From Escherichia coli (GTDB taxonomy: Bacteria; Pseudomonadota; Gammaproteobacteria; Enterobacterales; Enterobacteriaceae), in the NCBI RefSeq assembly GCF_051903065.1, contig NZ_CP178438.1: 64,000 nucleotides of DNA. One strand, given 5' to 3'. Positions 4,511-51,084 of the stretch are shown one piece after another; the first letter of the stretch is position 1, and each line of letters starts with the position of its first letter. Made by a program: the position numbers and the translations under genes. The notes under the pieces were generated by a model. That model saw only the letters and a list, made by a program, of their open reading frames with translations. It was not told where the DNA came from and made no database searches.

Positions 4511-6921
4511 TTGCACGCTGGTTCTGGCGCGAATGGCGTTCGCCGTCGCTATTAATTGTCTGGCTGGCGCTAAGCCTGGCGGTGGCCTGCGTGCTGGCGC
4601 TGGGCAATATCAGCGATCGCATGGAGAAGGGCTTAAGCCAACAAAGCCGGGAGTTTATGGCGGGCGATCGGGCGTTGCGCAGTTCGCGCGAAGTGCCGCA
4701 AGCATGGCTGGAGGAAGCGCAAAAGCGCGGCCTGAAAGTCGGCAAGCAGCTGACTTTCGCCACCATGACATTTGCAGGCGACACACCGCAGCTGGCGAAC
4801 GTTAAAGCGGTGGATGATATCTACCCGATGTATGGCGATCTGCAAACCAATCCCCCTGGCCTGAAACCGCAGGCGGGCAGCGTATTGCTGGCCCCACGCC
4901 TGATGGCACTGCTTAACCTGAAAACGGGCGACACCATTGACGTGGGCGATGCCACTTTGCGGATTGCCGGAGAAGTGATTCAGGAACCGGATTCCGGTTT
5001 TAACCCCTTCCAGATGGCTCCGCGTCTGATGATGAATCTGGCGGATGTCGATAAAACCGGAGCCGTGCAGCCGGGGAGTCGGGTCACCTGGCGCTATAAA
5101 TTCGGCGGCAGCGAGAACCAGCTCGACAGCTATGAGAAATGGTTGTTACCTCAGCTTAAACCCGAACAACGCTGGTACGGTCTGGAACAGGACGAAGGCG
5201 CGCTGGGGCGATCGATGGAACGCTCGCAACAGTTCCTGCTGCTTTCGGCGCTTCTGACCTTGCTGCTGGCAGTGGCAGCAGTGGCGGTAGCGATGAATCA
5301 TTACTGTCGCAGTCGCTACGATCTGGTGGCGATCCTCAAAACGCTGGGGGCAGGGCGAGCGCAACTGCGTAAGCTAATCGTCGGTCAGTGGTTGATGGTG
5401 CTGACGCTTTCAGCCGTTACCGGTGGGGCGATAGGCCTGTTGTTCGAAAACGTGTTGATGGTGCTGCTCAAGCCCGTTCTGCCTGCTGCACTACCGCCAG
5501 CCAGCCTCTGGCCATGGCTATGGGCGCTGGGCACCATGACGGTCATCTCGCTGCTGGTGGGGCTACGACCATACCGCTTGTTGCTGGCAACGCAGCCTTT
5601 ACGCGTATTACGTAATGATGTGGTAGCGAACGTCTGGCCGCTGAAGTTTTATCTGCCGATTGTCAGTGTGGTGGTTGTGCTGCTGCTCGCCGGATTAATG
5701 GGTGGCAGTATGCTGCTCTGGGCGGTGCTGGCGGGCGCGGTAGTACTGGCTTTGCTGTGCGGTGTGCTGGGCTGGATGCTGCTGAATGTACTTCGCCGCA
5801 TGACGCTGAAATCGCTGCCTCTGCGCCTGGCGGTTAGCCGCCTGTTACGTCAGCCATGGTCAACGTTAAGCCAGCTTTCGGCATTTTCGCTCTCCTTTAT
5901 GCTGCTGGCACTGCTGCTGGTGTTGCGTGGCGATCTGCTCGACCGCTGGCAGCAGCAGCTACCTCCAGAAAGCCCGAACTACTTTTTAATTAACATCGCC
6001 ACAGAACAGGTAGCACCGCTAAAAGCGTTCCTCGCGGAACATCAGATAGTCCCGGAATCGTTTTATCCGGTGGTGCGGGCGAGACTGACGGCGATTAACG
6101 GCAAGCCGACAGAAGGCAATGAAGATGAGGCGCTCAATCGCGAACTCAATCTTACCTGGCAAAATACGCGGCCCGATCATAATCCGATTGTCGCCGGTAA
6201 CTGGCCGCCAAAAGCCGATGAAGTGTCGATGGAAGAGGGGCTGGCGAAACGCTTAAACGTTGCCCTCGGTGATACCGTGACTTTTATGGGCGATACCCAG
6301 GAGTTCCGCGCTAAAGTGACCAGCCTGCGCAAAGTGGACTGGGAAAGTCTGCGGCCTAATTTCTATTTTATTTTCCCTGAAGGGGCATTAGACGGGCAAC
6401 CGCAGAGCTGGCTTACCAGTTTCCGCTGGGAGAATGGCAACGGCATGTTGACGCAACTCAACCGCCAGTTCCCTACCATTAGCCTGTTAGACATTGGCGC
6501 GATTTTAAAACAGGTCGGTCAGGTGCTGGAGCAGGTAAGTCGGGCGCTGGAGGTGATGGTGGTGCTGGTCACCGCCTGCGGTATGTTGCTGTTGCTGGCA
6601 CAGGTGCAGGTGGGAATGCGTCAGCGTCATCAGGAGCTGGTGGTGTGGCGCACACTCGGTGCGGGGAAAAAACTGCTGCGTACCACGTTGTGGTGTGAGT
6701 TCGCCATGCTTGGGTTTGTTTCCGGCCTGGTGGCCGCAATTGGTGCGGAAACGGCACTGGCAGTGTTGCAGGCGAAAGTGTTTGATTTTCCGTGGGAGCC
6801 AGACTGGCGATTGTGGATTGTTCTGCCGTGCAGCGGTGCGCTGCTGCTGTCGCTTTTCGGCAGCTGGCTGGGTGCGCGACTGGTTAAGGGTAAGGCGCTG
6901 TTCAGGCAGTTTGCGGGGTGA
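4507..6921 (+). CDS. ybbP: ABC transporter permease YbbP (FtsX/MacB-like)
   Basis: 804-aa ORF with duplicated multi-TM permease halves; coupled to ybbA. Confidence 0.9.
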   Translation: MIARWFWREWRSPSLLIVWLALSLAVACVLALGNISDRMEKGLSQQSREFMAGDRALRSSREVPQAWLEEAQKRGLKVGKQLTFATMTFAGDTPQLANVKAVDDIYPMYGDLQTNPPGLKPQAGSVLLAPRLMALLNLKTGDTIDVGDATLRIAGEVIQEPDSGFNPFQMAPRLMMNLADVDKTGAVQPGSRVTWRYKFGGSENQLDSYEKWLLPQLKPEQRWYGLEQDEGALGRSMERSQQFLLLSALLTLLLAVAAVAVAMNHYCRSRYDLVAILKTLGAGRAQLRKLIVGQWLMVLTLSAVTGGAIGLLFENVLMVLLKPVLPAALPPASLWPWLWALGTMTVISLLVGLRPYRLLLATQPLRVLRNDVVANVWPLKFYLPIVSVVVVLLLAGLMGGSMLLWAVLAGAVVLALLCGVLGWMLLNVLRRMTLKSLPLRLAVSRLLRQPWSTLSQLSAFSLSFMLLALLLVLRGDLLDRWQQQLPPESPNYFLINIATEQVAPLKAFLAEHQIVPESFYPVVRARLTAINGKPTEGNEDEALNRELNLTWQNTRPDHNPIVAGNWPPKADEVSMEEGLAKRLNVALGDTVTFMGDTQEFRAKVTSLRKVDWESLRPNFYFIFPEGALDGQPQSWLTSFRWENGNGMLTQLNRQFPTISLLDIGAILKQVGQVLEQVSRALEVMVVLVTACGMLLLLAQVQVGMRQRHQELVVWRTLGAGKKLLRTTLWCEFAMLGFVSGLVAAIGAETALAVLQAKVFDFPWEPDWRLWIVLPCSGALLLSLFGSWLGARLVKGKALFRQFAG

Positions 6922-7834: not shown

Positions 7835-8944
<1,110 letters not shown>

Positions 8945-8997
8945 TCAAATCAGCTTGCGCGCTATTTTACGCGCCAACGCGCAAGGAAACTTGATTT

Positions 8998-9924
8998 TTA
9001 ACTGCGTGGGTTGCCGAAAATTTCTAAAAATCCGCTGATTTCCGGCCTGCGCTGGGTAAACAAGGTCACAATATCTTCTACCGCTTTGCCGCTGCCAAAT
9101 TTGCGCCATGCCAGACTCAATGGCGAAGGAGGGCGCATCGTTGGGATTACCCGGCTGACCAGTTGTTGATTATCGATCATTGACTGGCAAAGCGATTTTG
9201 GCAAAAAACCAATGCCAACGCCCGCCAGATGGGCGGCGATTTTCGTTTCCATATCAGGAACAATAATCTCTTTTTGCCCTGGCAATCGCCAGGCGACGCG
9301 TTTGGTTAAGGTGCGGGCGCTGTCTTCAATATTGACCGCCGGAAAGCGCCGCAACTGCGCTTCTGTTAGCGGCTCTTCAACGTTCGCCAGCGGATGATCC
9401 GCCGCCATGACAAATCGCCATTGCACCGATCCTAAGGGATCAAGACTAAAGGTATTTGCCAGCGCCTCAGTTCCCGTGACGCCGATAGCCAGCGAAAAAC
9501 CTTCGTACAATAGCGAGTCCCAGACGCCCATATAGATTTGTCGGGAGATGTGAAACTGGGTAAAGGGGTAACGCTCATTCAGCCACGCCAGCAACTGGGC
9601 GACGGCCTGGGGGGTGTAGAGCAGGTTGTTGATGACAATATTCACCTGGCGTTCCACGCCATCATTCACCTGTTGCAGCTCGCTTGGCATACTTTCCAGC
9701 CAGCTCAGCCAGTCTCTGGCCTGGGAAAGTAGATGCTCGCCAGCCGCTGTCAACGTCACGCTGCGAGTCGTGCGAAAAAACAGCGCCACTCCGGTATTCT
9801 CTTCCAGAAGTTTAATGCGATAACTGATCGTCGCCGTGGTTTTACATAATCGTTCTGCCGCTTTTGAAAAACTTCCTGTTTCAGCAACCGCAATGAAAGT
9901 CCGCAAGGTTTCTGGATCGAACAT
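8998..9924 (-). CDS. allS: LysR-family activator of allantoin genes
   Basis: 308-aa ORF with N-terminal LysR helix-turn-helix; divergent from allA. Confidence 0.9.
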
Positions 9925-10031
9925 CTTCAGGTATCCCCTTTTAAATCCGCAAGTTGCGTGATTTTCTTATCCTCTGATTTATCAGTATTTTTACATGATA
10001 ACCCTGTTCAATTTGTGGACTAAATCTAGTT

Positions 10032-10048
10032 TTGGAAAAATATTCCAA
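10032..10048. promoter_or_regulatory. Probable AllR operator (palindrome TTGGAA-AAATA-TTCCAA) in the allS-allA divergent region
   Basis: Perfect inverted repeat; near-identical copy upstream of gcl. Confidence 0.55.
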
Positions 10049-10153
10049 CTTTTGTGTTGATGTTGTTCTCTTAAGGTTTTAGATTGCCTGTTATTGAAAC
10101 CAAGCTGACCGGTCGGCGGTGGTTGAACGGAATTATGTTACAAGGACAAAAAG

Positions 10154-10636
10154 ATGAAACTTCAGGTATTACCGTTAAGTCAGGAAGCCTTTAGTGCTTA
10201 TGGCGACGTAATCGAAACGCAGCAACGGGATTTTTTCCATATTAACAATGGCCTGGTGGAGCGTTACCACGATTTGGCGCTGGTTGAGATTCTTGAGCAA
10301 GACCGTACGCTTATCAGCATTAACCGCGCGCAACCGGCGAATCTGCCGCTGACCATTCACGAACTCGAGCGTCATCCGCTGGGTACTCAGGCCTTTATCC
10401 CGATGAAAGGTGAGGTGTTTGTGGTGGTCGTGGCGTTAGGTGACGACAAACCAGACCTGTCAACCCTGCGGGCGTTTATTACCAACGGCGAACAGGGAGT
10501 GAATTACCATCGTAACGTCTGGCATCACCCACTTTTCGCCTGGCAGCGCGTCACCGATTTTCTGACCATCGATCGCGGCGGCAGTGACAACTGTGATGTT
10601 GAAAGTATTCCTGAACAGGAACTCTGTTTTGCGTGA
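10154..10636 (+). CDS. allA: Ureidoglycolate lyase
   Basis: 160-aa ORF at the conserved position in the allantoin cluster. Confidence 0.9.
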
Positions 10637-10713
10637 CGCCTGCAACCGACTTGCATAAGATAAACTAATTGTTCATTGTTTATGCTCACTTGTAGGTCGG
10701 AGTTAACGTAGGT

Positions 10714-11529
10714 ATGACGGAAGTTAGACGGCGCGGCAGGCCAGGACAGGCGGAGCCTGTGGCACAGAAGGGCGCACAGGCATTAGAGCGGGGAATTGCG
10801 ATTCTGCAATATCTGGAAAAAAGTGGGGGAAGTTCGTCGGTTAGCGATATTTCTCTCAATCTGGATTTGCCGCTCTCCACGACCTTTCGCTTGCTGAAGG
10901 TTTTACAGGCAGCGGATTTTGTCTATCAGGACAGTCAGTTAGGCTGGTGGCATATAGGATTAGGTGTCTTTAACGTCGGTGCAGCGTACATCCATAACCG
11001 CGATGTCCTCTCCGTCGCCGGGCCGTTTATGCGCCGCCTGATGTTACTTTCTGGCGAAACGGTCAATGTCGCGATCCGTAACGGCAATGAAGCGGTATTA
11101 ATTGGTCAGTTAGAGTGTAAATCGATGGTCAGGATGTGTGCGCCACTGGGCAGTCGTCTGCCACTGCATGCTTCCGGTGCGGGCAAAGCGCTGCTTTATC
11201 CGCTGGCGGAAGAGGAGTTGATGAGCATCATTCTGCAAACCGGTTTGCAGCAGTTTACGCCAACTACGCTTGTGGATATGCCCACCCTGCTGAAGGACCT
11301 GGAACAAGCGCGTGAACTGGGCTATACCGTAGATAAAGAAGAGCATGTTGTAGGTCTGAATTGCATAGCTTCAGCAATTTACGATGATGTGGGTAGTGTT
11401 GTTGCCGCTATCTCCATCTCCGGGCCTTCATCAAGACTGACAGAAGATCGTTTTGTCAGTCAGGGTGAGCTGGTCAGAGACACCGCCCGCGATATCAGCA
11501 CGGCGTTGGGACTGAAAGCACATCCATAA
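10714..11529 (+). CDS. allR: IclR-family repressor of the allantoin regulon
   Basis: 271-aa ORF with IclR-type helix-turn-helix and effector domain. Confidence 0.9.
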
Positions 11530-20935: not shown

Positions 20936-21408
20936 CTAAAAATAATCAGGCGAGTGGTATGACTTAAATCTCTACGTCGCGGTTGCAATCTTTCGAGTAA
21001 ATATAGCTGAACGCTTCACCACGCCCTACGCCATAACCAGCCTGTAAAGAATAAGCGCCCATAAAGATGTAATCGCCTTTTTTCACCGGGATCCAGTTAT
21101 TGTCGAGGTTATAAACCCCCTGACCGGAAAGAATATAGGCACCGTGTTCCTGAACGTGTGTTTCGATATAACCATGGCTGGCACCTGGTGCAAAAGAGAG
21201 GATATGCATGTTCATATCAAAACCTAACTCTTTGGGCAGAAAATCCAGCAGGATCACATCATCCATACCTTCATAGTGAATGCGTTCCAGTTCGCTGGCA
21301 TTGCCAGAAACCAGCCACGGTGCATGGCCTTCTACCAGAACATAGCGGCGCTTGGTGATGCTGCCAACTTACTGATTTAGTGTATGATGGTGTTTTTGAG
21401 GTGCTCCA

Positions 21409-21684
21409 GTGGCTTCTGTTTCTATCAGCTGTCCCTCCTGTTCAGCTACTGACGGGGTGGTGCGTAACGGCAAAAGCACCGCCGGACATCAGCGCTATCT
21501 CTGCTCTCACTGCCGTAAAACATGGCAACTGCAGTTCACTTACACCGCTTCTCAACCCGGTACGCACCAGAAAATCATTGATATGGCCATGAATGGCGTT
21601 GGATGCCGGGCAACAGCCCGCATTATGGGCGTTGGCCTCAACACGATTTTACGTCACTTAAAAAACTCAGGCCGCAGTCGGTAA
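21409..21684 (+). CDS. insA: IS1 InsA
   Basis: 91-aa ORF with zinc-finger [14 protein letters not shown]...CSHC. Confidence 0.95.
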
Positions 21685-22106
21685 CCTCGCGCATACAGCC
21701 GGGCAGTGACGTCATCGTCTGCGCGGAAATGGACGAACAGTGGGGCTATGTCGGGGCTAAATCGCGCCAGCGCTGGCTGTTTTACGCGTATGACAGGCTC
21801 CGGAAGACGGTTGTTGCGCACGTATTCGGTGAACGCACTATGGCGACGCTGGGGCGTCTTATGAGCCTGCTGTCACCCTTTGACGTGGTGATATGGATGA
21901 CGGATGGCTGGCCGCTGTATGAATCCCGCCTGAAGGGAAAGCTGCACGTAATCAGCAAGCGATATACGCAGCGAATTGAGCGGCATAACCTGAATCTGAG
22001 GCAGCACCTGGCACGGCTGGGACGGAAGTCGCTGTCGTTCTCAAAATCGGTGGAGCTGCATGACAAAGTCATCGGGCATTATCTGAACATAAAACACTAT
22101 CAATAA
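21603..22106 (+). CDS. insB: IS1 InsB' (transposase made as InsAB' by -1 frameshift)
   Basis: 167-aa ORF overlapping insA in the -1 frame. Confidence 0.9.
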
Positions 22107-22536
22107 GTTGGAGTCATTACCGCGGCGCTTATATAAAAAGATTTGGCTGTCTTCGGCCTGGGCGTTAACAAACGTCATTAAGGAGCCTGGCGGGCAATAA
22201 AGATAGCCACCTTCGCTTAAGGCAAATGTTTTGCCTTCGGCTTTGGCAGTGATATTTCCAGAGATCACATACAGGAACGTTTCAATGCCTTCGCCACCGA
22301 AGCCCTGTTGGTTGCCACCGTTTTGATGCAGTGTGACCAGATAATCAACAAAAGAGGCACCCAGCTTTGGCGTGGAGAGGATTGTCGCGTCACAATTTTC
22401 AAAGCCCGGAATAATATTTTTTACCAGACCGTCTGGTGTTAACAGTGCGAAATTACCGTGTTTCACAATCGCACGGTTAGCCAGTAAATCATCGCGGTAA
22501 CCGGTGACGTTATTTAAATATCCCATTTATGACTCC

Positions 22537-24843: not shown

Positions 24844-25298
24844 CTGTCTTCCTTTTTAACGACGGTGTGAAGCATGACTGCAATTAACATACAGGGAAAA
24901 TATCTGGATTATGTGATCCAGACAGGCAAAAAAATATAGTTAGAATTTATTTGATAATCCGCTCGCTTTTAACCTGGTTTTTAAAACAACCACGCTTATT
25001 AAAAAATAACACGTAATAGCATGGCGGTTATTTGAATTCTTTTGTTAATAATCCCTGTGTGATATTCATCACCTTATTTACCCGTTGTCATCGATACCGT
25101 AATCGCCACATTAACACTGCTCGTGCAATTGCCATGGGTGCAATTTTTAAGGAGTTGTTATGATCCACGCCTTTATTAAAAAAGGGTGTTTTCAGGATTC
25201 GGTCAGTTTAATGATTATTTCACGAAAACTCAGCGAATCAGAAAATGTTGATGATGTTTCCGTAATGATGGGTACGCCCGCCAGGTAATGACTCCAAC

Positions 25299-25802
25299 TT
25301 ATTGATAGTGTTTTATGTTCAGATAATGCCCGATGACTTTGTCATGCAGCTCCACCGATTTTGAGAACGACAGCGACTTCCGTCCCAGCCGTGCCAGGTG
25401 CTGCCTCAGATTCAGGTTATGCCGCTCAATTCGCTGCGTATATCGCTTGCTGATTACGTGCAGCTTTCCCTTCAGGCGGGATTCATACAGCGGCCAGCCA
25501 TCCGTCATCCATATCACCACGTCAAAGGGTGACAGCAGGCTCATAAGACGCCCCAGCGTCGCCATAGTGCGTTCACCGAATACGTGCGCAACAACCGTCT
25601 TCCGGAGCCTGTCATACGCGTAAAACAGCCAGCGCTGGCGCGATTTAGCCCCGACATAGCCCCACTGTTCGTCCATTTCCGCGCAGACGATGACGTCACT
25701 GCCCGGCTGTATGCGCGAGGTTACCGACTGCGGCCTGAGTTTTTTAAGTGACGTAAAATCGTGTTGAGGCCAACGCCCATAATGCGGGCTGTTGCCCGGC
25801 AT
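25299..25802 (-). CDS. insB: IS1 InsB'
   Basis: Identical 167-aa protein to copy 1. Confidence 0.9.
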
Positions 25803-25996
25803 CCAACGCCATTCATGGCCATATCAATGATTTTCTGGTGCGTACCGGGTTGAGAAGCGGTGTAAGTGAACTGCAGTTGCCATGTTTTACGGCAGTGAGA
25901 GCAGAGATAGCGCTGATGTCCGGCGGTGCTTTTGCCGTTACGCACCACCCCGTCAGTAGCTGAACAGGAGGGACAGCTGATAGAAACAGAAGCCAC
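25721..25996 (-). CDS. insA: IS1 InsA
   Basis: Identical 91-aa protein to copy 1. Confidence 0.95.
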
Positions 25997-27613
25997 TGGA
26001 GCACCTCAAAAACACCATCATACACTAAATCAGTAAGTTGGCAGCATCACCCGCCCGCCAATAAAGCGTTATTAGATACCACAGGTTTCTGGCATGACGA
26101 TTTTAATAACGCCACGCCGAACGATATTTGCGTGGCAATTCGTAGCGAAGCGGCGGATGCGGGGATCGCGCAGGCGATTATGCAGCAGCTTGAAGAGGCG
26201 CTAAAACAACTGGCGCAGGGGTCAGGCAGCAGCCAGGCGTTGACGCAGGTGCGTCGCTGGGACAGTGCCTGTCAGAAATTACCCGATGTCAATCTGGCGC
26301 TGATTTCAGTGGCTGGCGAGTATGCGGCGGAGCTGGCGAATCAGGCGCTGGATCGCAACCTCAACGTGATGATGTTCTCCGATAACGTCACGCTGGAAGA
26401 TGAAATCCAACTTAAAACCCGCGCGCGGGAAAAAGGCTTGCTGGTGATGGGGCCGGACTGCGGTACGTCGATGATTGCCGGCACGCCGCTGGCTTTTGCT
26501 AACGTGATGCCGGAAGGCAACATTGGCGTCATTGGCGCTTCCGGTACCGGGATTCAGGAGCTGTGTTCGCAGATTGCGCTGGCAGGGGAGGGAATTACTC
26601 ACGCGATTGGCCTTGGCGGCCGCGACCTCAGCCGTGAAGTGGGCGGCATCAGTGCGCTGACGGCGCTGGAGATGCTCAGTGCAGACGAGAAAAGCGAAGT
26701 GCTGGCATTTGTTTCAAAACCACCTGCCGAAGCGGTGCTTCTGAAAATTGTTAATGCCATGAAAGCAACCGGCAAACCGACGGTGGCGCTGTTTTTAGGT
26801 TATACCCCGGCGGTGGCCCGCGACGAGAATGTCTGGTTTGCCTCCTCGCTGGATGAGGCCGCACGCCTGGCTTGCCTGCTTTCACGCGTTACGGCGCGAC
26901 GTAACGCGATAACGCCTGCCAGCAGCGGATTTATTTGCGGTTTGTATACCGGCGGTACGCTGGCTGCCGAAGCGGCGGGATTACTTGCCGGACACCTTGG
27001 CGTGGAAGCCGATGATGCCCATCATCACGGCATGATGCTCGACGCCGATGGTCACCAGATTATTGACCTCGGCGATGATTTCTACACCGTCGGGCGTCCC
27101 CATCCGATGATCGACCCAACCTTACGCAACCAGTTAATTGCCGATCTCGGCGCTAAACCGTCAGTGCGCGTATTGCTACTTGATGTCGTGATTGGCTTCG
27201 GCGCGACCGCCGATCCTGCCGCCTCGCTGGTAAGCGCCTGGCAAAAAGCCTGTGCTGCGCGTTCAGACAATCAACCACTGTATGCCATTGCCACGGTGAC
27301 AGGCACTGAACGTGACCCGCAATGCCGCTCGCAGCAAATCGCCACGCTGGAAGATGCGGGGATTGCGGTCGTGAGTTCGCTACCGGAAGCCACCTTGCTG
27401 GCGGCAGCGTTAATTCATCCGCTCTCGCCTGCCGCACAGCAACACACACCGTCATTACTGGAAAACGTCGCCGTGATTAACATCGGATTACGCAGTTTTG
27501 CGCTGGAGCTACAAAGCGCCAGCAAACCGGTTGTGCATTACCAATGGTCGCCAGTCGCCGGCGGCAATAAAAAACTGGCTCGTTTATTAGAACGTTTGCA
27601 ATAAGGGGTTCCC

Positions 27614-43055: not shown

Positions 43056-43688
43056 TTATATTAATTCGTATAATTTGGCGTAGTCGATAAGCTCTACAAT
43101 TGAATGCAAACCTAGCTTGCCATAAATATTAGATTTATGCGCACTAACTGTTTTATTGCTAAGTAATAACTTATCGGCAATTTCTTTATTAGATAATCCG
43201 CTGACCAGATAACGTAATATCGTCACTTCACGATTAGATAGCACAGTGATCGTTGAACTATTCGTACTACATTTATTGCTTTTTATATAGTTGAGCGTTT
43301 CGCTGGGAAAAAAAGTGTATCCGGAGAGGATCATCTGAACGGCATGAAAAATATCATTCTGATCATTGCATTTACTGACAAAACCGTTAGCACCAGCTTG
43401 TATCGCTCTGCCAGCATAAAAGCATTCTGATTTCGATGATAAAAATAACACTTTCACTGTGCTCTGGATTTGTTTGATCCTTTTCAGGAAGGTAAAACCG
43501 TCTGTTCCGGGCAAGTCTATATCCATAATGATTAAATCAACAGGACGGGTTCGGAGATAATCGATGGTTATGCGGTAATCATCCGTTTTCAGGACAATCT
43601 GCAATTCACTGTTTTTTTGCAACAGAACTTCAATAGACATTCTGATGATAGGATGAGTATCCATAATGATCACCGACGTTGGTTTCAT
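43056..43688 (-). CDS. fimZ: LuxR/FixJ-family response regulator FimZ
   Basis: Receiver domain plus C-terminal LuxR helix-turn-helix; start at MKPTSVIIMD gives 210 aa. Confidence 0.9.
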   Translation of the reverse strand: MKPTSVIIMDTHPIIRMSIEVLLQKNSELQIVLKTDDYRITIDYLRTRPVDLIIMDIDLPGTDGFTFLKRIKQIQSTVKVLFLSSKSECFYAGRAIQAGANGFVSKCNDQNDIFHAVQMILSGYTFFPSETLNYIKSNKCSTNSSTITVLSNREVTILRYLVSGLSNKEIADKLLLSNKTVSAHKSNIYGKLGLHSIVELIDYAKLYELI

Positions 43689-43930
43689 AGTTACCAGTCT
43701 CATAGGAGCGGACAATTTTCCGTTAGGGCGGTAAATTGTACTTTGATACATGAAAATACGGGTTTTCTTGATTCAGACGCGCAGCGGTGTGCGTTTGTTT
43801 GCCGCTATAGCGAAATAAATCAGAAAATCAGACGCGGTCGTTCACTTGTTCAGCAACCAGATCAAAAGCCATTGACTCAGCAAGGGTTGACCGTATAATT
43901 CACGCGATTACACCGCATTGCGGTATCAAC

Positions 43931-44007
43931 GCGCCCTTAGCTCAGTTGGATAGAGCAACGACCTTCTAAGTCGTGGGCCGCAGGTTCGAATCCTGCAGGG
44001 CGCGCCA
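43931..44007 (+). tRNA. argU: tRNA-Arg (anticodon UCU, reads AGA)
   Basis: GCGCCCTTAGCTCAGTTGGATAGAGCAACGACCTTCTAAGTCGTGGGCCGCAGGTTCGAATCCTGCAGGGCGCGCCA; cloverleaf with TCT anticodon and 3' CCA. Confidence 0.95.
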
Positions 44008-44052
44008 TTTCTTCTTCATTTATGCCCGTCTTATCCGTTTCCGCTTTGCCCT

Positions 44053-44814
44053 TCACCACATCACTTTTTGTCGCTGTTTGGCGAGATAATTCAACGGTGT
44101 CAGGCCGTAAAACGCCTTAAAAACAGAGATAAAGTACGACGTGCTGCTATAGCCACATAATTGCGCCACCTGAGTGATATTTTTGTTATCCATCAATAAC
44201 ATCTGTACGGCGTAACGCATACGACACTCTGTGACAATCTGGCTATAGCTGGTATTTTCGTTTTTTAATTTCTTTTTGAGCAGGCTGGGGCTTAAACATA
44301 GCGAACTGGCGACAATTCGCAGATTCCAGTAATGCTGAATATCGCTTTGAATAATGCGGCAGACGCTGTCGCGGACGCTGCTGCGTAAGATATACATCAG
44401 TAGGGCAATAAACCGCGATTGCTCAAGAAAGTTAGACAATACGGTAAAAAGCAATGCGCGTGTCAACTCCGCTTCGCAGGGTTTGCTGGGTTGCTGCTTG
44501 CTGTGGTTGGCGGCTAGCCGGAACACTTCCGGTGTACGGCTATGACAAGCGATAACCGGGGTAGCCAGCCGCGACCAGGGCTTTACACAGGTTAAGTTCT
44601 TATTTAAAAACAACAGATAATCGTTGATGATGTTACGGTTGATGTGGGTGATTAATACGTGATTTAACGTTGAGAGTTCAATGACGTTATTGTTGCACGC
44701 GAAGGCGGCCAGGTAGTTTTTCGGAAGGGTAAACGTAGCATGGTTATTGACGCTTACCTCTACCTCTTTTTCGGTCAGGATCACCACGCAAGGTTCACTG
44801 CTGCTCAATTGCAT
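44053..44814 (-). CDS. envY: AraC-family transcriptional regulator EnvY
   Basis: 253-aa ORF with C-terminal AraC helix-turn-helix. Confidence 0.85.
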   Translation of the reverse strand: MQLSSSEPCVVILTEKEVEVSVNNHATFTLPKNYLAAFACNNNVIELSTLNHVLITHINRNIINDYLLFLNKNLTCVKPWSRLATPVIACHSRTPEVFRLAANHSKQQPSKPCEAELTRALLFTVLSNFLEQSRFIALLMYILRSSVRDSVCRIIQSDIQHYWNLRIVASSLCLSPSLLKKKLKNENTSYSQIVTECRMRYAVQMLLMDNKNITQVAQLCGYSSTSYFISVFKAFYGLTPLNYLAKQRQKVMW

Positions 44815-44996
44815 TTCGCACTCCTCAGATATCAGAAACTCCGCTCAAAGGATCTATGCTTCCTGCATGAGTGATCGGCCCGTTCGCCGATAACGATCTT
44901 CTTTCTTTAGCACGCTTTTTAGCAATTAATCTTGATGGAATTCTGACGAGAGCGAAAGAGGTAAGCCAGGTCGTACCCGACTTACCTGGAGGAGAT

Positions 44997-45887
44997 TTAA
45001 TACTCGAGAATGCCGTGCGCGACGGGCAAATAGCGCAGAGAGAAATAGAGAGTGTCTTTACCGCAAGAGGAACGTTTCGCTAACAGCGAGGCAATTTCTG
45101 CGTCCGGTTTCGGTTTCGCTGTAAAGGTTTTGCCTTTGCCGGCGACAAACAGTTCATAAACAATGCCGCTTGCTGGGGCGGAGCTTTGGCAATCGGCGCT
45201 GGCCTGTAGATAACGTTCACGCTGTTCAGCGGTAAGTTTATCCACGCCGCTGCCATCCTGTACCCAGACATTAACGCCGGTTGCTTTAACGTGTTCCAGC
45301 AGTTGGCGATAGCCATCTGGCGACATGTTTCCGGCGAAAAAACTACTGATATAAACCGGTTTTGCTGAAACATCGCTAATCAGCCGCTGCGCGTTGTTTA
45401 ACCATGTTAGCAAAGGCTGACGGGCGGCTTCGCTGCGCCAGTTCAGGTCGTCAATTTCCGCGCTGATGTACCAGCCATCCGGCGTTACGCCAGGTACGGC
45501 ACTCCATAATCTGGCTTGCTGGAGATCGGCAGCCAGCAGGCGGTTAAGATAGCTTTCCAGCGCTGCGGACGACTGTTTCTGGTGCATAAAAAATTCCGGA
45601 TCGGCGTTCAACCCGACAATCAGCTTCAGGCCAGCCTGTTGCGCAGCTGCGGCGCGCTTAAACAATAACGTGCGCTGTTCTGGCTGGGTAAATGCATCGC
45701 CGTAACGAGTCCATTGCAAAACCAGGGTATCGAAGCCTTGCAAACGTAACTGACTCATCAGCCCCTGCCACTGGGTATCGGTAACCTGACTATCGCGGTT
45801 TTGTGGTTGCCAGATAATACCTTTCATCGCAAAGGAAAAAGGGCTGACCAAAAGCAGTGTCAGCAATACGAAAATGAACTTACGCAT
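44997..45887 (-). CDS. ybcH: Periplasmic protein YbcH (DUF4434)
   Basis: 296-aa ORF with signal peptide immediately downstream of nfrA. Confidence 0.85.
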   Translation of the reverse strand: MRKFIFVLLTLLLVSPFSFAMKGIIWQPQNRDSQVTDTQWQGLMSQLRLQGFDTLVLQWTRYGDAFTQPEQRTLLFKRAAAAQQAGLKLIVGLNADPEFFMHQKQSSAALESYLNRLLAADLQQARLWSAVPGVTPDGWYISAEIDDLNWRSEAARQPLLTWLNNAQRLISDVSAKPVYISSFFAGNMSPDGYRQLLEHVKATGVNVWVQDGSGVDKLTAEQRERYLQASADCQSSAPASGIVYELFVAGKGKTFTAKPKPDAEIASLLAKRSSCGKDTLYFSLRYLPVAHGILEY

Positions 45888-48860
45888 TTACCAGTGCACT
45901 CCAATGGTGAGAAACGCGTTGTTGCGCTCTCCGTTACGTTGATTAATCGCCTTAAAGGTATGTTGATACTCGACGCCGAGACTGACTTTGTGCGGCCAGG
46001 CGTCGTAGTGCGTCTCGCCGGTCCAAATATTCCAGCGGACCCCGACACCGCCAAGCTGCGCGCCCTGAGTGCCTTTATCACGATAGCCGTTGTCCTGAAC
46101 GTGAGCGTAAGGCTCAATAGTCTGTCCGTTAGCTACCTTCTGATGCCAGCTGACGCGATAATCTGCCGTCCACGCCTGAATATCCTGGCGGATATATTGC
46201 GCCGCATCGAGGTACAGGTTTTGGGCAAACCAGCCTGAACCGTTCGGGTGCCATTCGTCGCTGTATTTGCCGCCATTAAAGAATGAGGCGCTGGCGCGCA
46301 GCATGGTATCGGATGCGCCATTTTGCCCGTTCAGCGGCAACTGCTGTTCGACGGCGAGGAAAAAGATCTGATCGCGCAGCGGCTTCCAGCGTAGACCGGT
46401 GCCGGACATCGGATTTTTCACCGGCATCATCACCCCGTTTTCTCCGGTATCGGCAAAGACGCGGCTATAAACTGAGAGCAGGTCGCCTTCCAGCAGCATA
46501 TTGCGTCCGATGCGGTATTCGGCTTCCAGTTGCCCGTAGCTACGATAGCTTTTCCCTGGCGCTGCGCCGCCGACATTATTGTTAGCGGTACTCATTGCGC
46601 CGGAACGCAAGCCGATAGAAGAATCGAAACTGAACGTCCAGCGGCGACCGACCTCCTCATGCAAACGGCGGAAATTGAAGCGTTGTTGATTTTGCTCTGG
46701 CGTCAATGGGGTTATCAGCGCCTGATTATCAATGTCATCAATCACCAGCCGGGTGTAGTGCTGCGTCGCAGGCATGTCATCCAGACGCTGGTTCACATAG
46801 GCCAGTTGTCGGATCAGTGCCGGATCGTCCGGAAGCCCTTTATGCGCCTGTTCGAGCATTTCCCGCGACTGTGCGATATCACCGCTATCCCACAAGGCGT
46901 AACCAAGCGCTGCCTGGGTGTTGCTATTATTCGGTTCCAGTTCCAGCGCGGCGCGCAAATCACTCACCGCGGCCGGGACATTATGACGTTGGCGATAAAT
47001 TGTCGCCCGCGCAACGTAAGCGTTGGCAGAAGGCGCAATATTGATTGAGCGCGTGAGATCGTTCAGTGCGAGTTCCGGCTGACCAGGAATGTAACGTTGC
47101 GCATGCAGCCACCAGTAGAGGGCATTGCTTCCCAGTCCACGTTGTTCTGCCTGTTGTAGCCAGCGATCGCGAGCCGCACCATTTCCTGCCGCCTGGGCGG
47201 TATTGGCAGCAGCAAGCAGATCCTCATTGCTCATGTCGTGAAGACTGATTTTCTGCCAGGCCGCCAGTGCGGTGGCGTAGTCCTCAACCTGATACGCCTG
47301 ATAGGCTACCGCACGATGTTGCCAGGCGTTCGGTTGTCGTTGTTCGGCCTGAAGCCATGCATACAACGCCACACCGGGTAGCGTGTCCCGATAACACTTT
47401 GCCAGACGGTTCCAGGCGGCGGCATCGTAGGAAGGCGACATATCGCCCAGCAAGCGAACTATTGCCGGGCAATTATCTGCAATACCCGGCAACTGACTTT
47501 GCCACTGACGTTGCTCCGCCAGCGGTAAGGGTTTCGATAAAATCGCCACCTTCGCCGGCGTTGCCAGGTAAGGATGACTTTCCAGCAGAGACGCCAGTCG
47601 CGCCATTAAAGTCTGGCTGATACGCGCATCGCCCTGGAAAGGATAGCGTTGCAGCAATAAATCGGCAGCTTCCCGTGACTGCTCGTTCTGCATCAGTTGC
47701 CAGGTTAGTTGATCCAGGCGGGTAAGATTTGCCGGTTCTTGCTGATACAGCAAGCGTGCCAGACGCAGAGCTTCAGCCTTGTTACGGGTCGCCACGCTGA
47801 CAGCATAACGCTCCTCAAGCATTTCATTGGCGGGGAGGGTGGCGAGCAGTTTTTGCGCTGCGTCGTACTGACCTTCTTTTAACAGCACCGGTAGCGTCGC
47901 GCCAACAACATACTGGCGGTTATCGGCAAACTGCACCGTATAATTCGCCAATGCCTGAACGGGGTTGGCGCTGTATTTAGATAACAGATAGAGCCAACTT
48001 TTCTCTTGTGCGTCCGTGGTAAACAGCGGCTTATTTTCAATGAGATAATGCTGGAGGCGTGCTTTTTCGCCACGATAAGCCAGCGCGGTCGCGTAAGTAA
48101 TATATGACTGAGGATCGGTGAAGATCCCCTGTGATTGCAGTGCCAGGATCCGATCGTCCAGCTGCCCGGCAAGAAGCACGTCAAACCACTGACGGCGTTC
48201 TGCCGCGCTTAATGTGTTCTGCTGGCGTGCTTCATTGTATAGCGTATCTGCCTGGGACCATTGTTTCAGGTAGATTGCCCGTTGCAGCAGATCGGTTCGC
48301 AGCGTTTTTCCTTCCGGCGATGCAGCAAACGTCGCATCGTTCAGTTGCGCTCTGGCGACAGGTAACTGTGCCAGCCGCAGGGCATTCTGCCCGACTTCAC
48401 TGCGACAACGCAGGGTCGGCGCAGCATCGCACGCTTTTTGCTGGGCAAGCAGTTCTTCAACTGTCGTAACGCTTTTCACTTCAACTGGAATAGCCGCCAG
48501 ACTGCGCTCAAGTCGGGCATCTCCTGGGTGACGTTTCAGTTGATCCTCAAGCAACAGCCGCGCCCGGTCATCATGACCAAAATGGCGATAGGCTTCCGCA
48601 AGGTATAAAGTCAGCGGAATATTATCCGGCACCTGCTGGTGTATATATTCAAATTCGCGGATGGCGGTTGCTTCGTCGTTATTTTTCTGTGCCTTCAGCG
48701 CCTTATCGAGACGGGGATAAATAACAAAATGGCGATAATCGCTCAGCCCCAGCTCTTCTGCGCTGGTGCCGATATTGTCTGCGAGTGCGCTGGTACTCAA
48801 TAAAGACGTCAGCAGTAAACCAGACCATCCGATGACGCGATTAAGGTTATTCTCCTTCAT
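45888..48860 (-). CDS. nfrA: Phage N4 adsorption protein A (outer-membrane TPR/beta-barrel)
   Basis: Start at MKENNLNRVIGW gives 990 aa; overlaps nfrB stop. Confidence 0.9.
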   Translation of the reverse strand: MKENNLNRVIGWSGLLLTSLLSTSALADNIGTSAEELGLSDYRHFVIYPRLDKALKAQKNNDEATAIREFEYIHQQVPDNIPLTLYLAEAYRHFGHDDRARLLLEDQLKRHPGDARLERSLAAIPVEVKSVTTVEELLAQQKACDAAPTLRCRSEVGQNALRLAQLPVARAQLNDATFAASPEGKTLRTDLLQRAIYLKQWSQADTLYNEARQQNTLSAAERRQWFDVLLAGQLDDRILALQSQGIFTDPQSYITYATALAYRGEKARLQHYLIENKPLFTTDAQEKSWLYLLSKYSANPVQALANYTVQFADNRQYVVGATLPVLLKEGQYDAAQKLLATLPANEMLEERYAVSVATRNKAEALRLARLLYQQEPANLTRLDQLTWQLMQNEQSREAADLLLQRYPFQGDARISQTLMARLASLLESHPYLATPAKVAILSKPLPLAEQRQWQSQLPGIADNCPAIVRLLGDMSPSYDAAAWNRLAKCYRDTLPGVALYAWLQAEQRQPNAWQHRAVAYQAYQVEDYATALAAWQKISLHDMSNEDLLAAANTAQAAGNGAARDRWLQQAEQRGLGSNALYWWLHAQRYIPGQPELALNDLTRSINIAPSANAYVARATIYRQRHNVPAAVSDLRAALELEPNNSNTQAALGYALWDSGDIAQSREMLEQAHKGLPDDPALIRQLAYVNQRLDDMPATQHYTRLVIDDIDNQALITPLTPEQNQQRFNFRRLHEEVGRRWTFSFDSSIGLRSGAMSTANNNVGGAAPGKSYRSYGQLEAEYRIGRNMLLEGDLLSVYSRVFADTGENGVMMPVKNPMSGTGLRWKPLRDQIFFLAVEQQLPLNGQNGASDTMLRASASFFNGGKYSDEWHPNGSGWFAQNLYLDAAQYIRQDIQAWTADYRVSWHQKVANGQTIEPYAHVQDNGYRDKGTQGAQLGGVGVRWNIWTGETHYDAWPHKVSLGVEYQHTFKAINQRNGERNNAFLTIGVHW

Positions 48861-51084
48861 TTTCGGACTCCAGTTGCGCAACCTGTTCTGTGTTTAAACC
48901 TGCTTTGAGTAATAGTGATTGCATCGAAACTTGTAATTCGCGTTGAATTGTCAGGACGCGATCCAACGTTTCCTGGCTGATAACGCCTTCGGTGACCAAA
49001 AACTTGCCGAGCGGCAGAGAACTGCGTTCATGGCGCAATAACAACACGTTAATTGCTGAACGATTAATATGACCGAGCGTGGTCAGTATTTCGGCGAACA
49101 GGAACTGATGCGGCACATATTGCCGCCAGATTTCACCGGCCTGCTGTTCCGTGAGCCACTGATGCTGAACCGCATTGTACAACATTGCCCGCGGATCGTG
49201 ACCGCGTCGGCGCGCATACCAGTGGCGTAACCCCGTGACAATTTGTCCCCGCAGAACAATGACGTAACGCACTTTGCGTCCGACTTTACGCGTCAGGGCC
49301 GCCAGCGAAACCGGGTCAATACCATCTTCACTGCCGACAATTAACACATCATTTTCCAGACGCAGCGGCAGCACTGCATAATGCAGCGCCACGGAGGCTG
49401 GCATTTCGGCAATCAGCGAGGACGGGATCTGCCAGGCATCGATGGATTCCCACGCCACGCCGTTTTGCTCTGCCAGCGCCTGTGCCAGCTGCTCGGCGCT
49501 AATCAGCCCCTGCATCAGCATTGAACCGCCCAGGCGTAGACCTTCGACGCGATTACGCAGTGCTGTATCGAGTTGTTCTTCAGTGATGACCTGATTTTCC
49601 AGCAGAATTTGACCTAACGGGCGCAACGAGCGGGTATCGCCAGTCACGCTGGGGAAGTCATGCGTTGTTTTATCCCACGCGACGCGACGTGGATCGCCGT
49701 GTTGAAGTACCTGTTTTAACGCGCGCCAGTTGGCCATGAAGTTAATCAGGTTGCCCCAGAAAAGACGCAGGACGGAAAGCAGCCCCTGCGTCAGGCCGTA
49801 GTAGCCAGTAACGAAAATCACCCGCTGCACGATGCGGTTAACCATCAAACCAAAGTTTAGCCACAGCAGGGTCATTAACCATGCGCTGCCGCTGAAAATA
49901 GAAAGGAAATGCCAGGCATCGGGCCACAAACTTTCATACGCCAGCAACAGCAAAAGCTGGATCATCACCAGCATCGCGAGGAAGCTGACAAAGTTACTGA
50001 TTGCCCCTTTGCGGTCGCGCCAGAGAAAGTAGTTCAGCGTCAGGCTGGAGGTCCATTTATGGGTTTTAAAGCCCTGGAAAACAATGCCGATGATCCAGCG
50101 GGATTTTTGTCGAACCGCAGTCGAAAAGGTATCGGGGAAATATTCGCGCACGCAGATCATGTTTGACGTCCGTGCGTGCTGTAAAAATTTACGCTGCTCG
50201 CGTTCTTTGGCTTCGTCCACCACCGGAAAACGGACAAAAATTTCCGTCATACCTTTTTCTTTCAGGCGGAAGCCAATGTCGTAATCTTCAGTCAGACTCT
50301 GCACGTCGAAAGCAATACCGTCACCGTCAGCTAACAGAGCGGTCACGGCGCGGCGGCTGAAACAGGTGCCGACGCCTGCGCTGGGCACTTGTCCGGCGAG
50401 GGCTTCACGCACCGGAACATCTTTGCCATGCAGCTCTGAAAACTCATCAATGTAAGTCATGCTGGTGAAGTGCGTCCATTCGCGTTCAAACGGATACACC
50501 GGGATCTGAATCAGATCTTTACGCTCGACCAGATAGTTGAACAGACGCAATTCCATCGGTGAAATCACATCTTCGGCGTCATGCAGAATAAAACCAGCAA
50601 AAGCGAAATTGGCGCTACGCTCAAACTGGGTGATGGCGTCCAGCACGTTGTTCAGACAGTCGGCTTTGCTGGTGGGGCCAGGACGCGCGCAGACTACCTT
50701 ATGCACATTCGGGAAGCGAGCGCACACTTCGTCAACATCACGCTGAGTATCGGGGTCGTTGGGATAGGTGCCAACAAAGATATGATAGTTTTCGTAGTCG
50801 AGCGTGGTCGCCGCCAGCTCGGCCATATTGCCGATGACGCCCGTTTCATTCCACGCCGGAACCATAATCGCTAACGGTTTTTCATCTGGTTTATACAGTT
50901 CGCGGTAACTCATTCGCGGGTAGCGGCGATAAACACTCAACTTGCGTTTAATGCGGCGTACCCAGTAGACGACATCAATAAAAAAATCGTCCAGCCCGCT
51001 GATGAACATGATGACCGCTAACGTTATCGCGATTACTTTTAAGCCGTAGAGCCAGGTAGCAAAAACATCAAGAAGCCAGTCCAC
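48847..51084 (-). CDS. nfrB: Phage N4 adsorption protein B (family-2 glycosyltransferase with C-terminal c-di-GMP-binding domain)
   Basis: 745-aa ORF: N-terminal TM region, GT2 core (DAED), C-terminal MshEN-like region. Confidence 0.9.
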   Translation of the reverse strand: MDWLLDVFATWLYGLKVIAITLAVIMFISGLDDFFIDVVYWVRRIKRKLSVYRRYPRMSYRELYKPDEKPLAIMVPAWNETGVIGNMAELAATTLDYENYHIFVGTYPNDPDTQRDVDEVCARFPNVHKVVCARPGPTSKADCLNNVLDAITQFERSANFAFAGFILHDAEDVISPMELRLFNYLVERKDLIQIPVYPFEREWTHFTSMTYIDEFSELHGKDVPVREALAGQVPSAGVGTCFSRRAVTALLADGDGIAFDVQSLTEDYDIGFRLKEKGMTEIFVRFPVVDEAKEREQRKFLQHARTSNMICVREYFPDTFSTAVRQKSRWIIGIVFQGFKTHKWTSSLTLNYFLWRDRKGAISNFVSFLAMLVMIQLLLLLAYESLWPDAWHFLSIFSGSAWLMTLLWLNFGLMVNRIVQRVIFVTGYYGLTQGLLSVLRLFWGNLINFMANWRALKQVLQHGDPRRVAWDKTTHDFPSVTGDTRSLRPLGQILLENQVITEEQLDTALRNRVEGLRLGGSMLMQGLISAEQLAQALAEQNGVAWESIDAWQIPSSLIAEMPASVALHYAVLPLRLENDVLIVGSEDGIDPVSLAALTRKVGRKVRYVIVLRGQIVTGLRHWYARRRGHDPRAMLYNAVQHQWLTEQQAGEIWRQYVPHQFLFAEILTTLGHINRSAINVLLLRHERSSLPLGKFLVTEGVISQETLDRVLTIQRELQVSMQSLLLKAGLNTEQVAQLESENEGE

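Follow-up and report, generated by a model that had tools for sequence, protein, structure and literature searches.

In Escherichia coli K-12, the lambdoid prophage DLP12 separates the tRNA gene argU from the regulatory gene envY, whereas in the stretch of E. coli DNA analyzed here (64,000 nucleotides, referred to as the window) the two genes are direct neighbors. This arrangement raises the questions (i) whether the junction is an intact, vacant attachment site (attB) or the scar of an imperfectly removed prophage; (ii) whether the site was vacated or was never occupied; (iii) whether the arrangement points to an E. coli B background; and (iv) whether the strain is devoid of the protease OmpT, the gene for which lies between argU and envY in K-12.

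In the MG1655 annotation, the 'cryptic prophage DLP12' spans 564755..586056, starting inside argU, with intD at its left end. The original prediction had described appY and ompT as following the prophage, but the annotation places both genes (583681-584430 and 584680-585633, respectively) within the right end of DLP12, with envY just outside. They have likewise been counted as DLP12 genes in the literature (PMC2408971). Since appY and ompT lie inside DLP12, their absence from the window is the same event as the absence of the prophage and does not constitute an additional observation.

The features of the locus are collected in Table 1. The tRNA-Arg(UCU) gene is the only tRNA that ARAGORN detected in the 64 kb, and the Rfam tRNA model RF00005 recognizes it with 72.1 bits (gathering score, 29). 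Nothing beyond the tRNA exceeded the Rfam thresholds; an antisense match to 'Plastid-ycf2' (34.7 versus 65.7 bits) was dismissed as a sub-threshold, tRNA-shaped chance match. Judging from its match to the consensus and its spacing, the promoter-like element upstream of the tRNA would act as the argU promoter. Exactly 45 nt separate the tRNA, which ends at 44007, from the envY stop codon (44053-44055), and within this spacer we found no terminator-like hairpin and no notable fold (z = 0.43). The envY reading frame is 99.6% identical to K-12 EnvY across all 253 amino acids. The gene order around the site is sfmA-C-D-H-F (+), fimZ (-), argU (+), envY (-), ybcH (-), nfrA (-), and nfrB (-), and the same order is annotated in NZ_AP045789.1 (strain 23CRST027, from human faeces, Ecuador), which is 100% identical to the window here.

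Table 1. Features of the window discussed in the text; positions are those of the whole stretch.
Feature	Position	Strand	Description	Basis
IS1, first copy	21354-22121		768 nt; identical to, and in inverted orientation relative to, the second copy
IS1, second copy	25284-26051		768 nt; identical to, and in inverted orientation relative to, the first copy
fimZ	43056-43688	-	Left neighbor of argU	ORF; NZ_AP045789.1 annotation, locus 5657-6289
Putative argU promoter	43872-43899	+	Sigma-70-type, TTGACT - 16 nt - TATAAT	11/12 consensus; ~30 nt upstream of the tRNA
argU	43931-44007	+	tRNA-Arg(UCU), intact, with encoded CCA end	ARAGORN; Rfam RF00005
att core	43963-44009		47 bp, CTTCTAAGTCGTGGGCCGCAGGTTCGAATCCTGCAGGGCGCGCCATT	Sequence common to K-12 attL and attR
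argU-envY spacer	44008-44052		45 nt, native chromosomal sequence	Identical to E. coli B right of attR
envY	44053-44814	-	AraC-family regulator, 253 aa, convergent with argU	ORF; RefSeq annotation
ybcH	44997-45887	-	Intact	ORF; RefSeq annotation
nfrA	45888-48860	-	Intact	ORF; NZ_AP045789.1, locus 8489-11461
nfrB	48847-51084	-	Intact, 745-aa ORF	ORF list

A four-way alignment of the window with attL and attR of K-12 and attR of E. coli B determined that exactly 47 bp are common to all four sequences, and this att core extends from the argU anticodon loop to 2 nt beyond the end of the tRNA. To the left of the core, the window corresponds to the attL flank (the 5' half of the tRNA); to its right, it corresponds to the attR-distal flank, being identical to B and having one mismatch to K-12. 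The left and right flanks of the lysogens are thus contiguous in the window, and BLAST alignments to lysogens break at 43963 and 44009. A single copy of the core exists in the window, as in 23CRST027, while K-12 (564755-564801 and 586057-586103, flanking the annotated DLP12), strain Z1323CEC0019, and strain NCTC9022 have two copies each. When both strands of the window were searched for a second copy, allowing up to 6-7 substitutions and including sub-fragments of 15-30 nt, none was found, and a repeat search across 43800-44200 returned only chance repeats of 8-19 nt.

Searches for prophage-derived sequences gave corresponding results. The 64-kb window contains no match to DLP12 interior DNA (blastn, word size 11, E <= 1e-3). 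In tblastn searches of the window with IntD, YbcK, QuuD, RrrD, NohD, AppY, and OmpT (E <= 10), matches to IntD and OmpT were noise, and, apart from EnvY itself, the only match obtained with any of these proteins was the AraC-type helix-turn-helix (HTH) domain of AppY aligned against EnvY. No IS element or int fragment was found at the argU-envY junction. The original prediction that argU lacks DLP12, that appY and ompT are absent, and that envY adjoins the tRNA agrees with the ARAGORN result, the open reading frames, the blastn and tblastn searches, and the number of core copies. Its statement that no integrase, attachment-site repeat, or ompT lies between the tRNA and envY was likewise upheld, and neither an int fragment nor a duplicated tRNA 3' end, which would have indicated a prophage remnant, is present in 44008-44052.

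Because the right flank is the sequence found to the right of attR in both K-12 and B, the junction represents a clean attB, and the presence of a single core in its native context (fimZ - argU - 45 nt - envY) indicates a strain without the prophage and its cargo. We therefore have very little doubt that 43931-44060 constitutes an unoccupied attB of the kind used by DLP12-type lambdoid prophages that integrate into argU; no observation speaks against this interpretation. K-12 has the same locus, the same 47-bp core, and the same flanks, fimZ-argU on the left and envY-ybcH-nfrA-nfrB on the right; it differs in that 21.3 kb (intD ... appY, ompT) lie between two cores, whereas the window has one core with nothing inserted. 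The vacant site would presumably still be able to accept integration, and argU would be a free landing site for argU-targeting phages.

In phages with tRNA-targeting tyrosine integrases, the attachment site attP holds a copy of the 3' segment of the tRNA. In lysogens such as K-12, the tyrosine integrase IntD would have recombined attP across the 47-bp core, which covers the 3' part of argU. The prophage would thereby supply a replacement, phage-derived tRNA 3' end at attL, leaving argU functional, and the original 3' end would be displaced by ~21 kb to attR; in K-12, the attR core is indeed located between ompT and envY. Both appY and ompT are cargo genes at the right end of the prophage, a position that accounts for their ending up beside envY. 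Hha has been reported to induce DLP12 excision (PMC4632033).

AppY, encoded on the prophage, and the chromosomally encoded EnvY are paralogues of the AraC family, sharing 44% identity over 96 amino acids of the HTH domain. The EnvY stretch matched by AppY corresponds to window positions 44077-44364, i.e., the C-terminal domain of envY. In K-12, appY and envY are situated on opposite sides of attR with only ompT between them.

That E. coli strains differ in whether they have DLP12 at argU is textbook knowledge, and we determined the distribution of this polymorphism among the 5,426 complete RefSeq genomes of E. coli. The empty junction was detected in 2,537 of these (47%), scored as coverage of at least 80% of a 171-nt junction-centered probe, a threshold that also admits a few junctions with small insertions (in one example, the probe matched in two pieces over 527 bp). 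A 1.5-kb probe comprising fimZ-argU-envY was covered in 2,502 genomes. Full-length intD beside argU was found in 1,646 genomes (30%), and ~1,000 further genomes contain only the proximal half of intD, at ~92% identity. By megablast, ompT is present in 3,095 genomes, while 43% are without it. As the genomes with an empty junction and those with ompT together exceed the total of 5,426, at least about 200 genomes must combine an empty argU site with an ompT gene elsewhere.

When a 5.5-kb query from the window was used, the best 40 matching chromosomes all (40/40) had the empty junction. O157:H7, O157:H16 Santai, ETEC O169:H41, and 23CRST027 have the identical empty architecture, with 99.4-100% identity over the 5.5 kb, and belong to one allele class with the window. 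The nearest genomes, 23CRST027 and 23CRST031, are human faecal isolates from Ecuador that are 100% identical to the window over 25 kb. With nearly half of the complete E. coli genomes having the same junction, the finding is an ordinary one: the empty argU site is one state of a known presence/absence polymorphism and occurs in about half of E. coli.

A scan of species-representative genomes for the junction of core and right flank yielded one match, contig JAIJJM010000316.1 (3,563 nt) in a 'Collinsella sp.' metagenome-assembled genome. Over 155 nt, this contig matches the junction of the envY end and attR of E. coli with 99.4% identity, while the rest, which presumably is DLP12-side sequence, is absent from the window. 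The contig is likely mis-binned E. coli DNA that carries an occupied attR junction.

Whether the site was vacated or was never occupied cannot be read from the junction, since the product of a precise excision is identical in sequence to a site that was never used, and the site sequence consequently carries no information on its history. An unoccupied site, Int/Xis excision, a RecA crossover, and an imported empty allele all result in the same sequence. As all of the closest relatives (the best 40 matches) are empty, the empty state is not the result of a recent event in this strain.

We lean slightly toward the interpretation that an ompT-bearing DLP12-like element has a long history in E. 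coli and that the empty state of this clade is due to its precise loss in an ancestor. Candidate routes for the loss are excision by Int/Xis, RecA-mediated recombination of the two 47-bp direct repeats with each other, and the import of an allele with an empty site. In support of an old element, ompT has diverged at the level of the core genome (95-99% identity to K-12 in 2,347 genomes), and remnants consisting of a truncated integrase and ompT are found at argU in divergent strains, including NCTC9022, where the attR core itself has decayed. Furthermore, ompT adjoins envY in O55:H7, while O157:H7, which descends from an O55:H7-like ancestor, has a clean attB; the comparison suggests that clean reversion happens in nature. 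The alternative, also raised in the original prediction, is that the site is in its pre-integration state, no phage having ever been at argU in the ancestors of this strain and ompT and appY having never been acquired. The scar-free attB is compatible with this alternative, as is the fact that the empty site is the commonest single state (47%) and is common to all of the closest relatives. The DLP12 content differs between K-12 and B, which speaks against secondary loss insofar as it is also compatible with repeated independent integrations. However, a site that was never occupied is harder to reconcile with the ompT remnants at the same site in divergent backgrounds, one of them a strain that lacks sfm/fimZ and envY, as well as with the core-genome-level divergence of ompT and with the O55:H7 and O157:H7 states. 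On balance, we consider an original vacancy a serious possibility, with a likelihood somewhat short of even.

To the more general form of the loss interpretation, in which an ompT-bearing DLP12-like element entered argU early and was cleanly removed many times, making the empty state a derived one and the window one such loss, we would give an even chance. If true, the lack of ompT in ~43% of E. coli would reflect recurrent precise prophage loss, possibly selected, and not a lack of acquisition.

Decayed states of the locus in other strains illustrate what scars at this site look like. In Z1323CEC0019, argU, a truncated integrase, IS1203, appY, ompT, a second core, and envY all lie within 4.8 kb. 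In NCTC9022 (NZ_LR134237.1), argU is followed by a frameshifted integrase fragment, a tail-fibre-assembly fragment, a methyltransferase, ompT, the core, and ybcH; folD is located directly upstream of argU, while the sfm operon, fimZ, and envY are missing, and ompT adjoins ybcH through an attR core with four substitutions. In about 1,100 genomes, identity to the argU region is just ~94%, and these genomes probably share the NCTC9022 architecture.

Both strains exhibit scars at the same site, but they have retained a truncated integrase, a second core, and ompT, none of which is present in the window. Such states (an int fragment with IS1203 and appY-ompT, or an int fragment with ompT and no envY), together with that of BL21(DE3), demonstrate that resident prophages do decay, and the window could in principle be the outcome of an IS-mediated or illegitimate deletion running from int through ompT. 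However, a deletion of this kind would fail to regenerate attB exactly, whereas the junction in the window is base-perfect, with a full tRNA, one core, and the native right flank. The site contains no IS element and no int fragment, and 44008-44052 contains no non-native bases, being 100% identical to other genomes with an empty site. We thus regard an imprecise deletion as exceedingly improbable. Hardly any probability attaches, either, to an assembly artefact in which a prophage was collapsed out between the 47-bp repeats: nothing specific points to one, the same junction is found in 2,537 independently finished genomes, two of them 100% identical over 25 kb, and repeats of just 47 bp would not suffice for 5-21 kb of unique sequence to be collapsed.

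The original prediction had further taken the missing ompT, together with an abundance of IS1, as fitting a B-lineage background; in that case, ompT would have been lost in the way known from B-derived laboratory strains. The states of B and BL21 were read directly from the RefSeq records of REL606, ATCC 11303, and BL21(DE3); a search of the open-access literature on the ompT deletion of BL21/REL606 returned no match. REL606 and ATCC 11303 were found to carry DLP12 with appY, ompT, and envY at argU. BL21(DE3) is missing appY and ompT, as is the window, but there the loss of ompT is due to an imprecise deletion between a prophage tail-fibre gene and a point immediately upstream of cusS, a deletion that also removed appY, envY, ybcH, nfrA, and nfrB, while intD and most of DLP12 were kept. 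The window shows the reverse, an empty attB with envY through nfrB intact. In addition, nfrB is a pseudogene with an internal stop in the B strains ATCC 11303 and REL606, whereas it is an open frame of 745 amino acids in the window. Thus, the B-type features DLP12/intD at argU, the envY-nfrB deletion, and the nfrB stop are all absent.

As for IS1, which is widespread across E. coli, the 64 kb contain just two copies, hardly an abundance. All that would favor a B background is a lack of ompT in common and the occurrence of IS1 in the window; with the nearest genomes being human faecal isolates from Ecuador and not B, the probability of such a background is negligible. The strain is not B-like, and the lineage assignment is corrected accordingly.

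The absence of DLP12 would leave the strain without the AppY regulator, without DLP12 genes such as emrE, rusA, nmpC, and borD, and without the OmpT protease. As this protease cleaves antimicrobial peptides and also breaks down recombinant proteins, the locus is useful for phenotype prediction; beyond the description of the strain, the vacancy has little significance.

Whether ompT resides elsewhere was addressed using window positions 43400-48900 (5.5 kb) and K-12 ompT as one query, counting the places matched in each record; ompT was placed in reverse orientation, which keeps the two query parts from joining at one place. The two 100% matches, 23CRST027 and 23CRST031, which are not exactly the window genome in that both have an additional IS903B, gave one place each; hence, these chromosomes are without ompT, a result that applies to chromosome records, plasmids being separate, and to omptins above the ~85% identity below which megablast misses them. 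O157:H7 chromosomes with the empty junction, which gave two places, served as the positive control. There, ompT is 100% identical to K-12 and is located beside minCDE, among a tail-fibre-assembly fragment, IS66/ISEc8, and IS1203 (for example in TR01, NZ_CP033605.1 1591692-1606645). No att core was found near ompT of TR01, and the gene was evidently relocated together with prophage debris.

The predicted OmpT-negative phenotype is therefore plausible, given the two 100%-identical chromosomes without ompT, but it does not follow automatically from the empty site, as O157:H7 combines this empty site with an ompT gene at another locus, whereas the nearest relatives of the window have no chromosomal ompT.

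The two IS1 copies are located in the allantoin cluster, with one copy inserted in allE (ylbA) and the second within the 5' end of fdrA. Between them lies a 3.16-kb segment, allE'-allC-allD, so that the whole resembles a composite transposon. In 23CRST027 and 23CRST031, the additional IS903B, which is frameshifted (~1.06 kb), is inserted between the allE fragment and allC (NZ_AP045789.1 897214-898181, corresponding to window position ~22530); the window does not contain it and thus stems from a very close relative rather than from one of these two records. An inversion between the inverted IS1 copies was considered and rejected: each copy has its own 9-bp target duplication (GCGGCGCTT and CGCCCGCCA) and the halves of the disrupted genes are collinear, which indicates independent simple insertions. 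These insertions probably inactivate part of the allantoin-utilization cluster.
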